Origin: Wocania ichthyoenteri Th78
GTDB taxonomy: Bacteria; Bacteroidota; Bacteroidia; Flavobacteriales; Flavobacteriaceae
Assembly (NCBI RefSeq): GCF_000789235.1
Contig: NZ_KN525716.1
Location: 1,371,674 to 1,403,673 of the forward strand
Length of the DNA: 32,000 nucleotides
Direction: 5' to 3'
Each line of letters opens with the position of its first letter. Positions within the stretch are counted from its first letter, which is position 1. Made by a program: the position numbers and the translations under genes. The notes beneath the pieces are model-generated. The model ran no database searches. It was not told the DNA's origin and saw nothing but the letters and a program-made list of their open reading frames with translations. Shown piece after piece: positions 6,769 to 17,084 of the stretch.

Positions 6769-12955
<6,187 letters not shown>

Positions 12956-14974
12956 TTAGTCCTTTTGTAATAGCATGATAAGGTGCGCTGCGCTCCAACT
13001 AAAATTTTCGGCATTTAAACCTTTTCCTGTTAATGGATGGTAATTTTCGCGTATAGATTTTCCTTTTCCTAAAATGCCTTCAGCACCTTCAATAATTTGA
13101 ATGGTTGCTTTATCTGCCTCTTTATTAAACCCATAATTACGCAATCCTTTTACACCAAAATAAGCTTGATCGAGCCAATTTGGACCGCGCCAATAACCTT
13201 CTAACGGGTCGAATCTATTATGGTCTGCACTCATGGTTTGAAATGGCACTTTAGTATAGAATTTCTTTGGATTCATCAGTTTATTTTTTACAGCTTCTGC
13301 CTGTTCTTGTGTCGCTGCTTTAGCCCAAAGTGCTGTCCAGCCTTCACTACCTTCTCCTTTAATAAAAATGGTTCCTTCAAGATTTGTATCGTAAAACCAA
13401 CCATCTTCTTTGTCGTAGAATTGTTGTTGGATTTTTTGTTTTAAAAGTTCAGCTTCCTCTTTATAGATTTTGGCATCTTCTGAATTTTTTAGAATAGTAG
13501 CTAATTCGCTTAAATATAGTTTTTCGGCATATAAATAAGCATTTAAATCTACACTTTCTTGGTCTAGAGAATATGCGCCTTCACTATTTTTAAGAATTTT
13601 AGAATCATCGAAACGAATAGCATTGTCCATACCGCTTTCCCATTTTGCAGCAATTAGTGTGCCGTCAGTTGAGCCATATTCACACAATCCATCTTGGTCG
13701 TGGTCACGTTTATTATACCACCATTCGTGATATTTTTTTAATTTCGGATAAGACTCTTTTACAAATTCAATATCCTTATTCTTTTCATAAATCTTAGTAA
13801 CTGCCCACACAGCAAGTGGCGGTTTGGTATCACGATAATTATGCGCTTCAATTGTGGTGTCTCGGTAAATACAATCTACAATAAAACCGTCTTTACTTTG
13901 AAAATCGAACATCGCTCGCATTTGATTTTTTGCTAAACTGGTATCGTAATAAGATAGTCCCACAACATGCTTCCAAGAATCCCAAGACCAAAACCCATTA
14001 AACCATTCGTAGTGATAACTTGGGAATAAGCCTTCGTGTTTAATTTCTCCTGCAGGAATTCGCCAATTGTTTTGCAGTGTTAAATGAGCTTTGGCTAAAA
14101 CTTCAGCATATTTATAATCTTTAAATTGTGATTTTCTGTTTTCGATAAGGGTTTTTAGTTGACTATTTTTTTCTTGTTTTCGTACATTTAAAACGGAATC
14201 GAAATTAATCTTTTGAATTTGTTTTTTTTCTTCTTCCCAAGAATATTCTGGAAAAATAAAGGTATGTAAAATAGTAATTTCTTTGGTTTCGTTGGGTTTT
14301 AAATCTAAACTACTTTTTGCGTTGTATTGTAAGCTATCTACTAATTCAACATGGGTAGTTTTAGGGAAAGTTAGATAACCTTTGGCATTTGTTTTTGTAG
14401 AATTAATTTTGATTATGTTATCACTTTTTGATAAAGAAATTCCACTAATCAAAATAGGCGAGTGACCCCATAAAATTTTCACATTGATACTCCTATCACT
14501 AGTGTTTTTTATTTTGGTTTGTAGTAAAGCAGTGTGCCCGTTTTTGAAAACTAGTTTTTCGCTCACAGCTATTTTATCGCTTGAATAGTTCTTCTCTAAA
14601 TGACTTGAATAACTATGCCCTTGTCCCCCATTTAGTAATTCAAAGCTATTATCAACTTTAATCATGGCATTCATAAGAGATGTGCTTAACCAAACACCAT
14701 TTTGCTGCGTCATCAAAAAAGGTCCAGAAAAACCAATAGATTCATTTGATTCTTTATGCAAGCCATACCCAAACCAAGCACCTTGACCTGAAAACATTAA
14801 ACCAGATTTATCTACAGAGTCTTTTGGTGTAATATGGTAATCCAGAATATTTTTACTAAAGTTTAGGAAATTATCTTTATTATCAATCTTTATTGGTTCT
14901 TTAGGCTTATTACAACTAAAAATTAATAACAAAACTAAAACTGCTATATATTTAATCACCTTGTTTAAATGCAT
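12956..14974 (-). CDS. GH63-like (clan GH-G, (alpha/alpha)6-barrel) glycosidase, probable alpha-glucosidase, lipoprotein
   Basis: 672 aa with a lipoprotein signal (VLLLIFSC). Motifs FWSWDSWKH, KWESGMDNAIRFD and YWRGPNWLDQAYF resemble GH63/MGH/trehalase-clan signatures (compare ESGxDD and WRGPIW in GH63). Its stop codon (12956-12958) abuts the start of the fusion gene (12955) with no gap. Confidence 0.6.
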   Translation of the reverse strand: MHLNKVIKYIAVLVLLLIFSCNKPKEPIKIDNKDNFLNFSKNILDYHITPKDSVDKSGLMFSGQGAWFGYGLHKESNESIGFSGPFLMTQQNGVWLSTSLMNAMIKVDNSFELLNGGQGHSYSSHLEKNYSSDKIAVSEKLVFKNGHTALLQTKIKNTSDRSINVKILWGHSPILISGISLSKSDNIIKINSTKTNAKGYLTFPKTTHVELVDSLQYNAKSSLDLKPNETKEITILHTFIFPEYSWEEEKKQIQKINFDSVLNVRKQEKNSQLKTLIENRKSQFKDYKYAEVLAKAHLTLQNNWRIPAGEIKHEGLFPSYHYEWFNGFWSWDSWKHVVGLSYYDTSLAKNQMRAMFDFQSKDGFIVDCIYRDTTIEAHNYRDTKPPLAVWAVTKIYEKNKDIEFVKESYPKLKKYHEWWYNKRDHDQDGLCEYGSTDGTLIAAKWESGMDNAIRFDDSKILKNSEGAYSLDQESVDLNAYLYAEKLYLSELATILKNSEDAKIYKEEAELLKQKIQQQFYDKEDGWFYDTNLEGTIFIKGEGSEGWTALWAKAATQEQAEAVKNKLMNPKKFYTKVPFQTMSADHNRFDPLEGYWRGPNWLDQAYFGVKGLRNYGFNKEADKATIQIIEGAEGILGKGKSIRENYHPLTGKGLNAENFSWSAAHLIMLLQKD

Positions 14975-15057
14975 TTTTTTAATTAGGATGTGTACGTATT
15001 TTAAAACTTAATAGATTCTAACAAATTTCGATTATTTTTCTTTAATAATTCAAAAAA

Positions 15058-15075
15058 CACCTTTACTTGACCTTT
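15058..15075 (-). promoter_or_regulatory. 18-bp operator AAAGGTCAAGTAAAGGTG (direct repeat with 11-bp period) upstream of the GH63-like operon
   Basis: Read on the minus strand it is identical to the 18-mer at 16967-16984 and has the same orientation relative to its downstream gene. A -7-like box GAAATTTG (15029-15022) follows 28 nt later. The start codon is at 14974. Confidence 0.6.
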
Positions 15076-15164
15076 CATATTCACTTTTTTAAGCCCCATA
15101 TTAATTTATAATATCGTTATTTGTAATATATGTAGATTTCTTTATAATTTATAAATCTTAGCTA

Positions 15165-16859
15165 ATGAAAAAATTAATGAAACTTACTTTTTTTATACTT
15201 GTATTTATAGGTCTTACTATGCATTGTCAAACTAATATCTGGGATGAAAACCCAAGCGACTCTCAAATAGAATTGGATAGTTTACTAACCATCCTACCCT
15301 ACTCAAGAGGTAAAGATAAAATACCTTTGTTAAATAGAGTTGCTGAAATTTATTGGTCTATAAACTCCAATAAAACTATAGAATATGCAAATGAAGCGTT
15401 ACAGTTAGCACAAGAGTTTAATGATAAAAATCAAGAAGGATTAGCGCTTATTAATCTTTGTCAAGGCTATTTGTTTAATGATTTTTATGATAAAGCTTTA
15501 CAACTAGGGCTGCAATCGTTGGAAATTAGAAAAGGTATTGAGAATGATTATGATTTAGCCTTTACACTACGAACCCTTGGATGGCTATATTACGACATTG
15601 GCTATTTTGACAAAGCTCTTGAATACCATACTGAAACTTTAAAAATACATGAAAAAATTGGCGACAAGCAGCGCATTGCTTATAGCTATAACAGTATAGG
15701 ACTAATTCACGAACACAAAGGAGATTGCAATTTGGCATTATCTTTTTTTAAAAAATCTTTAGAGCTTAAAAAAGCGTTTAATAATAAAGATAGAATTGCA
15801 GAAACCATGAAAAATATGGGTGTTTGTTACCGTAAAATTAATGAACTAGATTCTGCTAAGACCTTTTTAGAATCTTCTTTAGAGATTACAAATCAAATTA
15901 AAGACGATCAAAATAAGGTGCATATTCTAAATGAACTTTCAATTGTAAATTTAAAGCTTGGAAATTTTGACAAATGTTATTTACTATTAAAAGAATCCAG
16001 ATTGATTATGGAGGGATTAATGGATAATAAAGAGTGGATAGTGGAGAATGATAGAATTATGTCTGACTACTATTTAGCAAAACAAGATTATAAAGAGGCT
16101 TTCAATTACTATAAGAAATACGCAGAAGGGAATTCAGAAATTTTTTCGAGTAATAAAAGTGAAAAACTAACTGAAATGAGGATTCTTTACGAAGATGAGC
16201 GAAGAGAGTCTGAAATTAAATTATTAGAGCAACAAAGAAACTTAGAAGCCCAAAAAAGAAAATTATTACTAATTGGTTCTATATTATCAGTAATTATTGC
16301 AATTCTTATTATAGCATCACTTTGGAACAATATAAAAAAGAAAAAAGCGATTTACCTGCAAAGCCATAAGTTGTCAAAAGAAAAATTAAGAACACAATCG
16401 CTTTTACGAGAAAATCTTGAGCATAAATTAGAATTTCGTATGAAAGAGCTAACAAATCTAGCCTTATTTATATCTCAAAGAACATCAATATACAAAGACC
16501 TTACAAAATCTTTTAAAAGCTTAAATTTTACAGATATAAAGCAATTAAAAAAAGACATAAATGCACTTATAAAAGAATATACATTTAAGTTTGATTTTAA
16601 TGAAGATATTCAAAGATTCCATACAAATGTTGAAACTTTACAAAGCGATTTTTTATTCAGAATTAAAGAAAAATATCCTCACTTAACTAACAAAGATGTA
16701 CAATTAGCCGTTCAAGTTAAGCTTAAGCTCAGCTCAAAAGAAATAGCAAATATTAATAATATTTCTTTAAATTCTGTAGAAATTGGCAGGCATCGATTGA
16801 GAAAAAAACTGAATTTAGATAAAAAAGAAAACCTAGTTAGTTTTCTAGAAAGTATTTAG
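15165..16859 (+). CDS. Transmembrane one-component regulator: periplasmic TPR sensor domain + TM helix + C-terminal LuxR/GerE-type HTH
   Basis: 564 aa with a signal peptide and multiple TPR-like repeats (aa ~60-330). One TM helix (LLLIGSILSVIIAILIIASLW) precedes a C-terminal HTH (LTNKDVQLAVQVKLKLSSKEIANINNISLNSVEIGRHRLRKKL). Confidence 0.7.
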   Translation: MKKLMKLTFFILVFIGLTMHCQTNIWDENPSDSQIELDSLLTILPYSRGKDKIPLLNRVAEIYWSINSNKTIEYANEALQLAQEFNDKNQEGLALINLCQGYLFNDFYDKALQLGLQSLEIRKGIENDYDLAFTLRTLGWLYYDIGYFDKALEYHTETLKIHEKIGDKQRIAYSYNSIGLIHEHKGDCNLALSFFKKSLELKKAFNNKDRIAETMKNMGVCYRKINELDSAKTFLESSLEITNQIKDDQNKVHILNELSIVNLKLGNFDKCYLLLKESRLIMEGLMDNKEWIVENDRIMSDYYLAKQDYKEAFNYYKKYAEGNSEIFSSNKSEKLTEMRILYEDERRESEIKLLEQQRNLEAQKRKLLLIGSILSVIIAILIIASLWNNIKKKKAIYLQSHKLSKEKLRTQSLLRENLEHKLEFRMKELTNLALFISQRTSIYKDLTKSFKSLNFTDIKQLKKDINALIKEYTFKFDFNEDIQRFHTNVETLQSDFLFRIKEKYPHLTNKDVQLAVQVKLKLSSKEIANINNISLNSVEIGRHRLRKKLNLDKKENLVSFLESI

Positions 16860-16964
16860 TTTTTTAAAATTCTTATCTCTAAATAGAGCCATACTCTCTT
16901 CTTTAATTTTTATTTACACGCATTTCTTATTAAACACACACAAATAAAGACATTTAAGTATAAT

Positions 16965-16984
16965 GTAAAGGTCAAGTAAAGGTG
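16965..16984 (+). promoter_or_regulatory. Operator GTAAAGGT-caa-GTAAAGGT-G upstream of susC-like gene
   Basis: Two 8-bp direct repeats spaced 11 bp apart. The 18-mer at 16967-16984 is identical to the reverse complement of 15058-15075. A -7-like box AATATTTG at 17014-17021 follows 29 nt later. The flanks are about 70% identical to the other site over roughly 65 nt. Confidence 0.6.
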
Positions 16985-17084
16985 ATTTTTGAGGTTTTAT
17001 TTGAAAATAATACAATATTTGATAACACCTAAGCTCATGCCAAAATTTGAGGCTTGGGCATATGACTAACAAATAACTATTAAT

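Follow-up and report, generated by a model that had tools for sequence, protein, structure and literature searches.

A 32,000-nucleotide stretch of the Wocania ichthyoenteri Th78 genome (contig NZ_KN525716.1, forward-strand positions 1,371,674 to 1,403,673; called the window in the following, with positions counted from its first letter) carries two identical copies of an 18-mer, AAAGGTCAAGTAAAGGTG, one upstream of each of two divergent operons that flank the gene of a membrane-spanning regulator. The 18-mer is built as a tandem direct repeat and, judging from its conservation in orthologous loci, is almost certainly a functional cis-regulatory element. Its two copies are probably tandem activator sites, which would be bound by the regulator encoded between them. 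One of the operons begins with a GH63-like gene (GH, glycoside hydrolase family), the other with a susC-like gene. The elements of this arrangement are:

15058-15077, minus strand: left tandem site, TGAAAGGT-CAA-GTAAAGGT-G, facing the GH63-like operon; its distal half is TGAAAGGT
16965-16984, plus strand: right tandem site, GTAAAGGT-CAA-GTAAAGGT-G, facing susC
16954-16961, plus strand: possible degenerate third half-site TTAAGTAT, one 11-bp period 5′ of the right site
15022-15029, minus strand: -7-like box GAAATTTG of the GH63-like operon, after a 28-nt gap from the left 18-mer
17014-17021, plus strand: -7-like box AATATTTG of the susC operon, after a 29-nt gap from the right 18-mer
15051-15054, minus strand: -33-like TTTG, 4 nt past the left repeat
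16988-16991, plus strand: -33-like TTTG, 4 nt past the right repeat
15116-15123, plus strand: candidate -7 box GTTATTTG of the regulator's own divergent promoter, conserved in most orthologs
15165-16859, plus strand: regulator gene, 564 aa, with signal peptide, periplasmic tetratricopeptide repeat (TPR) domain, transmembrane (TM) helix, helical linker and a helix-turn-helix (HTH) of LuxR/GerE fold

Exactly two copies of the 18-mer are present in the 32-kb window, at 15058-15075 on the minus strand and at 16967-16984 on the plus strand. When up to three mismatches to AAAGGTCAAGTAAAGGTG were allowed the same two matches were returned (0.05 expected; two or more matches in 0 of 100 shuffles). A first-pass annotation of the window had reported these positions and strands together with the -7-like boxes at 15029-15022 (GAAATTTG) and 17014-17021 (AATATTTG), and all of them were re-read exactly. 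The orientation it had described, identical for each copy relative to its own downstream gene, is confirmed by the coordinates, since the left copy points toward the start of the GH63-like gene at 14974 (minus strand) and the right copy toward the start of susC at 17085 (plus strand). Likewise, at both promoters the half-sites are repeated directly every 11 bp, as GTAAAGGT-CAA-GTAAAGGT at the susC promoter and as TGAAAGGT-CAA-GTAAAGGT at the left one, and the repeat sequence shows no palindromic or dyad symmetry. The flanks of the two copies had been described as about 70% identical over roughly 65 nt. This applies to the downstream side, where 30 of 45 nt (67%) are identical and where identity amounts to about 76% over 63 nt if the 18-mer is included, but not to the upstream side, where 6 of 20 nt agree, which is the random level. 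The similarity extends from the repeat downstream as far as the -7-like box.

Conservation of the repeat and its promoter context

Orthologous loci were fetched via the regulator protein and are hence unbiased toward the DNA motif. Seven loci were taken from protein-encoding contigs (L001-L007) and 27 from a metagenome scan (L128-L154), of which 33 in total were testable. The regulator orthologs are 72-90% identical and belong to Arenibacter, Lutibacter, Maribacter, Gelidibacter, Winogradskyella, Flavobacterium, Polaribacter, Flavivirga and others. In the flanks of each regulator gene the best match to GTAAAGGTNNNGTAAAGGT was located, and these matches were subjected to a column-wise comparison.

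On the susC side, downstream of the regulator gene, the repeat is present with at most two mismatches in 31 of the 33 loci, with the consensus tGTAAAGGT-YAW-GTAAAGGT. All 26 unique sequences have an ATATTTG box whose TTTG starts exactly 34 nt past the repeat; the position of this box never varies, and its sequence hardly does. On the divergent, GH63-like side 26 of the 33 loci carry the repeat at three mismatches or fewer and 31 at five or fewer. Here the consensus reads TG(A/T)AAGGT-cAa-GTAAAGGT, and of 25 unique sequences 22 have the TTTG of (c)GAAATTTG 33 or 34 nt downstream of the repeat. The information content almost reaches its maximum over the repeat, the T-run following it and the -7 box, and is at background level elsewhere. 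The repeat-bearing orthologous loci span at least eight genera of the Flavobacteriaceae. Because it is kept with a fixed spacing to the -7 box in many genera while the flanks diverge, the alignments identify the repeat as a phylogenetic footprint, that is, as a real cis-element.

At some orthologous susC promoters three tandem half-sites with 11-bp spacing are found (L138, 5832-5861; L151, 5857-5886; L004, 10832-10861), the triple site of L138 reading GTAAAGGC-TAT-GTAAAGGT-CGT-GTAAAGGT. In the window the trace of a third half-site is weak, with a three-mismatch match at 16955-16972; the ortholog alignment shows a conserved TTTAA block at this position. Within 379 kb of orthologous loci 62 sequences lie within one mismatch of AAGGTNNNGTAAAGGT, and 56 of them are the promoter sites. 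Four of the other six are register-shifted third half-sites (L004, L138, L141, L151), while the remaining two are the left site of L146, which has a variant -7 box, and one match inside a GH2 coding sequence.

The common gene order of these loci is GH2, a kinase/phospho-lyase fusion and the GH63-like gene on one side of the regulator gene, and susC, susD and sometimes an FG-GAP gene on the other. The GH2 gene is syntenic in L001, L003, L004, L005 and L007. In the Flavobacterium loci L002 and L140 the genes are arranged as a single unit of aldehyde dehydrogenase, susC, susD and GH63-like gene, and despite this rearranged operon order the site and the regulator gene stay adjacent.

The sigma-A promoter of Bacteroidota consists of a -33 TTTG and a -7 TAnnTTTG element. 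From this -7 consensus we infer promoter function for the -7-like boxes of the window, which lie 63 nt (ATATTTG) and 47 nt (AAATTTG) 5′ of the start codons, a position kept in the orthologs; the TA at the head of the consensus is not always retained. Only 11 of 25 unique left promoters have a -33 TTTG at the offset seen in the window, and 12 of 26 unique right promoters have no TTTG within 12 nt after the repeat. That about half of the promoters do without a -33 TTTG suits an activator-dependent recruitment of RNA polymerase. The proposal that the sites occupy an activator-type position, around -40 to -60, is thus in line with their location just upstream of the -33 region and with the frequent lack of the -33 element. 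The term operator, which had been used for them, is loose wording, as the position argues for an activator site. In most orthologs a (T)ATATTTG box is found about 42 nt beyond the distal half-site of the left repeat, back to back with the promoter of the GH63-like operon, and the left repeat may also serve autoregulation of the regulator gene.

To look for copies outside the locus, the GTDB representative genomes (596 Gb) were scanned with AAAGGTYAWGTAAAGGT, a 16-position pattern. At least 120 stretches were obtained, and the results given here and below refer to the matches listed. Nineteen of the listed stretches were assigned to the orthologous locus by tblastn with the window proteins. Each genome contributes a single locus, in which one or two sites are found; represented are Gelidibacter, Arenibacter, Lutibacter, Jejuia, Hwangdonia, Flaviramulus, a Wocania metagenome-assembled genome (MAG) and others. 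A TTTG at offsets 33-35 accompanies 23 of 23 matches in this polysaccharide utilization locus (PUL) versus 7 of 104 other matches. Outside the PUL, 13 Flavobacteriales matches were checked, and all of them lack a correctly spaced -7 box. Three Psychroserpens matches and one from Subsaxibacter encode the peptide KGHVKV, the matches in L014, L041 and L068 sit in open reading frames, and those of Croceivirga (L093) and strain GF1 (L089) both fall in the same conserved coding context, which is siroheme-synthase-like. For the matches in L060, L080, L097 and L127 the coding status is not shown; these have no -7 box at the right offset. The rest are singletons from unrelated phyla, in a number expected by chance. 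The first-pass annotation had named dispersal throughout the genome as an observation that would speak against a regulatory site; in the genomes scanned, which are those of relatives only, the repeat is not dispersed.

The scan also returned an 11-mer tandem array, (TATGTAAAGGT)n, on two contigs of the Paludibacteraceae MAG RUI460 (Bacteroidales; L027, 4278-4345, and L079, 4765-4825), which has the half-site sequence and the period of the repeat in an unrelated context.

The regulator and related systems

The regulator is 100% identical to a Wocania ichthyoenteri 'tetratricopeptide repeat protein'. Hydropathy analysis revealed hydrophobic segments at aa 4-22 and aa 364-391, the second followed by NNIKKKK; aa 23-363 are predicted to be periplasmic and aa 392-564 cytoplasmic. 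In Pfam the sensor region matches TPR_12 (E = 1.7e-30), and no match to Reg_prop or Y_Y_Y was obtained. As HisKA, HATPase_c, REC and AraC domains were not found in the protein by Pfam or NCBIfam, it does not represent a hybrid two-component system (HTCS). The HTH comprises about aa 495-564. Compared with GerE (PF00196) the C-terminus reached E = 4e-4 and 20.4 bits, below the gathering threshold of 23.5, and relatives in the regulator family score 22-28 bits; weak matches to the C-terminal domains of the response regulators TtrR and MctR were also obtained.

An AlphaFold2 model of aa 361-564, based on an alignment of 42 family members, has a predicted local distance difference test (pLDDT) score of 90. 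A long helix, in which the TM and cytoplasmic parts are continuous, is followed by another long helix, and the chain ends in a compact domain of helices. The top 50 matches of Foldseek in the PDB are all LuxR/FixJ/NarL DNA-binding domains (RcsB, VraR, DosR, LiaR, NarL, TraR), and superposition on these domains gave a root-mean-square deviation of 1.7-2.0 Å over 57-60 residues and TM-scores of 0.75-0.8 versus the isolated domains. According to the model, the C-terminus is a four-helix LuxR/FixJ/NarL fold. Hydropathy, Pfam and the AlphaFold2 model agree with the first-pass description of the regulator between the sites, with a TPR domain, one TM helix and a LuxR/GerE-type HTH. Its gene is the only syntenically conserved regulatory gene of the orthologous loci, which share no conserved phosphorelay protein. 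Among 113 orthologs, conservation of the regulator is highest in the HTH region, whose core, VQVKLKLSSKEIANINNISLNSVEIGRHRLRKKL, is essentially invariant across loci and genera, as is the half-site. Since both are essentially invariant among the orthologs, covariation of HTH and half-site cannot be assessed.

The ortholog in a Flavobacteriaceae MAG has stop codons in its HTH-coding region (L117, 5249-5400); this copy is a pseudogene unless a frameshift arose in sequencing.

An exhaustive search with aa 361-564 returned 12,202 cluster representatives at E ≤ 1e-3 and 2,735 at E ≤ 1e-10 (clusters at 50% identity). The best 150 relatives listed are mostly 530-650 aa long, and four longer members that were scanned (571-740 aa) are TPR proteins. 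The output module also matches proteins of 927-1015 aa with E about 1e-19. Six of these were scanned, and Y_Y_Y was found in all six, Reg_prop in four and GerE in five. By these matches the cytoplasmic module is homologous to that of the Reg_prop + Y_Y_Y + GerE regulators, the type to which BguR belongs.

BguR of Formosa agariphila is a close characterised counterpart in architecture and setting. Its deletion abolishes growth on laminarin and the 70-110-fold induction of the laminarin PUL, and a conserved motif was predicted between the bguR gene and the first PUL gene (bioRxiv 10.64898/2026.01.10.698779); the preprint text does not contain the sequence of this motif. According to the same preprint, SusR alone has an architecture comparable to BguR, and only a GntR repressor and BguR have experimental support as PUL regulators in marine Flavobacteriia (bioRxiv 10.64898/2026.01.10.698779). 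BguR and the regulator of the window are both membrane-spanning one-component proteins from marine Flavobacteriia, encoded beside susC/susD, with signal peptide, periplasmic sensor, single TM helix, helical linker, C-terminal GerE HTH and no phosphorelay domains. They differ in the sensor, which consists of a tandem beta-propeller and Y_Y_Y in BguR but of TPRs here, in length (940 versus 564 aa) and in the PUL, which is a beta-glucan PUL in the case of BguR and a non-beta-glucan PUL here; the activator role is demonstrated for BguR only. The class, which had been designated as poorly characterised, is thus not wholly uncharacterised any more, as BguR, which has a sister architecture, was shown to be a PUL activator in 2026.

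SusR of the Bacteroides starch utilization system, an activator of a susC/D locus, shares the periplasmic sensor, the single membrane span and the C-terminal cytoplasmic HTH. The motifs predicted for SusR-like regulators in Bacteroides are direct repeats on one helix face with boxes 67 or 77 bp apart (PMC3878776), whereas the half-sites described here are adjacent, 11 bp apart. Membership in the SusR family (NCBIfam NF058541) was rejected, with 15.4 bits over the TPR region only against a cut-off of 480; the C-terminal module gave no match to the SusR model even at E ≤ 10. The regulator also has weak matches to the NCBIfam 'BT3442 family' over its TPR and C-terminal regions, and nothing informative on this family was found in the literature. 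In principle the regulator is akin to BguR and SusR, which are known; the TPR-sensor branch and its site of adjacent repeats are new.

LuxR/GerE domains usually bind inverted repeats as two-fold symmetric dimers, as at the lux-box or the NarL 7-2-7 site. The C-terminal ~60 residues of the regulator share the fold of the LuxR/FixJ/NarL domains, but its candidate site is a head-to-tail direct repeat. Precedents for direct repeats bound by a LuxR fold are the MalT boxes and the BvgA heptads. The layout is that of Pho-box/OmpR sites, where direct repeats in tandem, with a period of 11 bp, adjoin the upstream hexamer or take its place at promoters with a weak upstream element; those sites are bound by phosphorylated winged-helix response regulators, whereas the candidate binder here is LuxR-fold, membrane-tethered and phosphorelay-free. 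Proteins of the ToxR/CadC type also use direct repeats and combine membrane span and direct binding of promoter DNA in a single polypeptide, but they have a winged-helix fold and the opposite order, with an N-terminal DNA-binding domain and a C-terminal sensor.

Among more distant members of the family, the paralog L155, whose output module is 41% identical and which belongs to a PUL with GH31 and FG-GAP genes, has GTTAAGGT-GCT-GTATAGGT in the intergenic region on the susC side, with a TTTG exactly 34 nt later. In the BguR-type locus L158, a single sequence, the corresponding region has GTATTAAT-GAT-GTAATGAC with a TTTG at offset 36. A repeat search with a 6-nt seed detected no direct repeats in the intergenic regions of the paralogs. 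The tandem-site architecture may extend beyond the ortholog group; a class-wide motif is not claimed.

Upstream of susC in L159, another paralog locus, a LacI-type palindrome, TGACAACGTTGTCG, is located at 7730-7760 beside a divergent lacI gene, and this PUL appears to have two regulators. Furthermore, a module of TPR-TM-GerE regulator, susC, susD and a large FG-GAP/ASPIC-UnbV protein recurs in different PULs (L155, 1-2115; L156, 12899-13668; L159, 12613-13635; window, 21806-25126), and the FG-GAP protein may be a standard partner of such regulators.

Binder of the repeat and mode of regulation

By type of result, the argument is a standard comparative-genomics regulon inference. Two, sometimes three, head-to-tail GTAAAGGT half-sites lie 11 bp apart, centre to centre, the 11-bp period placing them on one helix face. 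If transcription starts a few nt past the -7 box, the repeat would span about -45 to -63, and the proximal half-site would end 4 nt before the -33 position of a sigma-A-type promoter. A periplasmic ligand would be sensed by the TPR domain, the signal would be transmitted via the TM and linker helices, and the LuxR-fold domains of an oligomer would occupy the tandem half-sites head to tail. Both operons, GH63-like/kinase-phospho-lyase/GH2 and susC-susD-FG-GAP, would thereby be switched on, and the regulator's own divergent promoter, which shares the left site, might be affected too. The rigid distance between repeat and -7 box implies a stereospecific contact. Conserved synteny and the parallel invariance of HTH and half-site make it probable that the regulator is the binder of the repeat, and, provided that it is, activation is also probable.

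Several observations weigh against activation by the adjacent regulator. The main tension is the direct repeat itself, which is unusual for the LuxR fold and would rather be expected of OmpR/PhoB winged-helix proteins. The regulator ortholog of Flavivirga spongiicola (L006), 75% identical, is located away from susC/D and from any copy of the repeat, at 7917-13671 between a LysR gene and catabolic genes of lysine/hydroxylysine type, namely those for HglS, aldehyde dehydrogenase, the kinase/phospho-lyase fusion and an FAD oxidase. Two paralog loci have no comparable repeat: L156 has a loose TGTAGnGG repeat of 11 bp without a matching -7 offset, and in L159 the LacI-type palindrome is accompanied by just one GTAAACGT. 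Thousands of paralog clusters have a highly similar recognition helix, which raises the question of how paralogs of the same genome discriminate their targets; strict adjacency of gene and site as a part of this discrimination is speculation. In addition, the dispersal test covers the genomes of relatives only.

The tension over the direct repeat leads to the alternative that the site is real but is bound by another transcription factor, for example an OmpR/PhoB-type response regulator or an AraC-type HTCS, the TPR-HTH protein acting elsewhere or in another way. These families typically recognise direct repeats beside the -35 region, a pair of direct 8-mers that has a period of 11 bp and adjoins the -33 region corresponds to the classic Pho-box/OmpR layout, and L006 provides a case of the regulator gene without a nearby site. 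Nevertheless we regard this alternative as unlikely: no other regulator gene is syntenic across genera and no phosphorelay protein is conserved, site and regulator gene co-occur in 31 of 33 loci and are adjacent even in L002 and L140, the invariant HTH is paralleled by the invariant half-site, and the paralog L155 has a related site at the same offset. If the regulator binds, it could also act as a repressor or dual regulator, which would turn the repeat into a true operator. The sign of regulation is not fixed by sequence, and occupancy of the left site, situated between back-to-back promoters, could hinder one of them. Such a role is improbable, however, in view of a site that is clear of the -7 box and the predicted start and lies upstream of the -33 position, of the many promoters without a -33 TTTG, and of SusR and BguR, the two characterised membrane-spanning one-component PUL regulators, which are both activators.

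The rigidly fixed distance to the -7 box would also fit a repeat that is part of the core promoter, as an UP-like element or as the upstream element of an alternative sigma factor. This is very unlikely, given that the locus contains no sigma/anti-sigma pair, that SusC is without an N-terminal STN domain, that a tandem and sometimes triplicated 8-mer is unlike known -35-type or UP elements and that the repeat was found only at the PUL in the scanned genomes. The presence of 63 similar nt at two places within the window might suggest that the two copies stem from a recent local duplication, or belong to a family of dispersed repeats, and have no function. With repeat and spacing kept in at least eight genera while the flanks diverge, and with several of the copies outside the PUL being coding and others chance singletons, this explanation is hardly credible.

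Little is known of PUL regulation in marine Flavobacteriia. Activation by the adjacent regulator would provide a precise hypothesis for a third widespread regulator type, consisting of a 564-aa TPR-TM-GerE protein and GTAAAGGT-N3-GTAAAGGT, and it would also define the place of the site, 34 nt upstream of the -7 TTTG, and two target operons. If true, a LuxR-fold domain would act on tandem direct repeats while being membrane-tethered, and the conserved site would be a handle for regulon prediction across genomes. Furthermore, the regulator would be linked to an apparent pathway for collagen glycan-hydroxylysine, a niche undescribed for PULs in the literature searched.

A wider reading, which we put forward only tentatively, takes the repeat as the first recognition element and promoter architecture for the very large, experimentally untouched TPR-TM-GerE branch. 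It would have the LuxR fold bind head to tail on two to three tandem 11-bp units beside the -33 position and not on a palindrome, and the choice of targets depend partly on the adjacency of gene and site, for instance through co-translational membrane insertion near the locus. The PUL would then be an undescribed one that serves the use of collagen-type glucosyl-galactosyl-hydroxylysine, and the periplasmic ligand of the TPR domain would be a glycopeptide or an amino-acid glycoside.

Gene cluster, putative substrate and susC leader

Besides the regulator gene the cluster consists of the following genes, assigned from the open reading frames with Pfam and NCBIfam:

6769-9954, minus strand: GH2 beta-galactosidase, last gene of the left operon
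9929-12955, minus strand: fusion of an APH-type kinase, M23 and a phospho-lyase of class-III aminotransferase fold
12956-14974, minus strand: GH63/YgjK-like alpha-glucosidase, first gene of the left operon
17085-20162, plus strand: susC-like TonB-dependent transporter
20179-21699, plus strand: susD-like lipoprotein
21806-25126, plus strand: FG-GAP/ASPIC-UnbV repeat protein

No repeat site is present upstream of the FG-GAP gene (21806-25126), which is probably co-transcribed with susCD. E. coli YgjK is the best solved relative of the GH63-like enzyme. The C-terminal domain of the fusion protein is closest to the ethanolamine-phosphate phospho-lyase 6TOR (E = 2e-134) and is also related to a bacterial phospho-lyase. 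Related loci add genes for aldehyde dehydrogenase, saccharopine dehydrogenase, HglS and FAD oxidase (L002, 11293-12849; L003, 15686-17056; L006, 2171-13671).

This gene content suggests catabolism of collagen-type glucosyl-galactosyl-hydroxylysine. Glucose and then galactose would be removed from Glc-alpha1,2-Gal-beta-O-hydroxylysine, the hydroxylysine would be phosphorylated, and the phospho-lyase would convert the product to 2-aminoadipate semialdehyde, which would enter a lysine-type catabolism. Mammalian hydroxylysine kinase and phospho-lyase form an analogous pathway. A description of a PUL for glucosyl-galactosyl-hydroxylysine was not found in the literature searched. Between the kinase and phospho-lyase domains of the fusion protein lies an M23 peptidase-like domain (aa 439-536), an arrangement that is kept in all orthologs.

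The 5′ leader of susC contains a further predicted element:

17028-17058, plus strand: predicted stem-loop in the susC 5′ leader, minimum free energy -10.8 kcal/mol

An Rfam scan of positions 14800-17300 at E ≤ 1 gave no match, including the hairpin in this leader. At the same leader position a hairpin is predicted in most orthologous susC leaders, with differing stem sequences (CTCATGCC/GGCAT, CTTAAACTT/AAGTTTAAG, GCACA/TGTGC). Different stems at one position hint at compensatory change.

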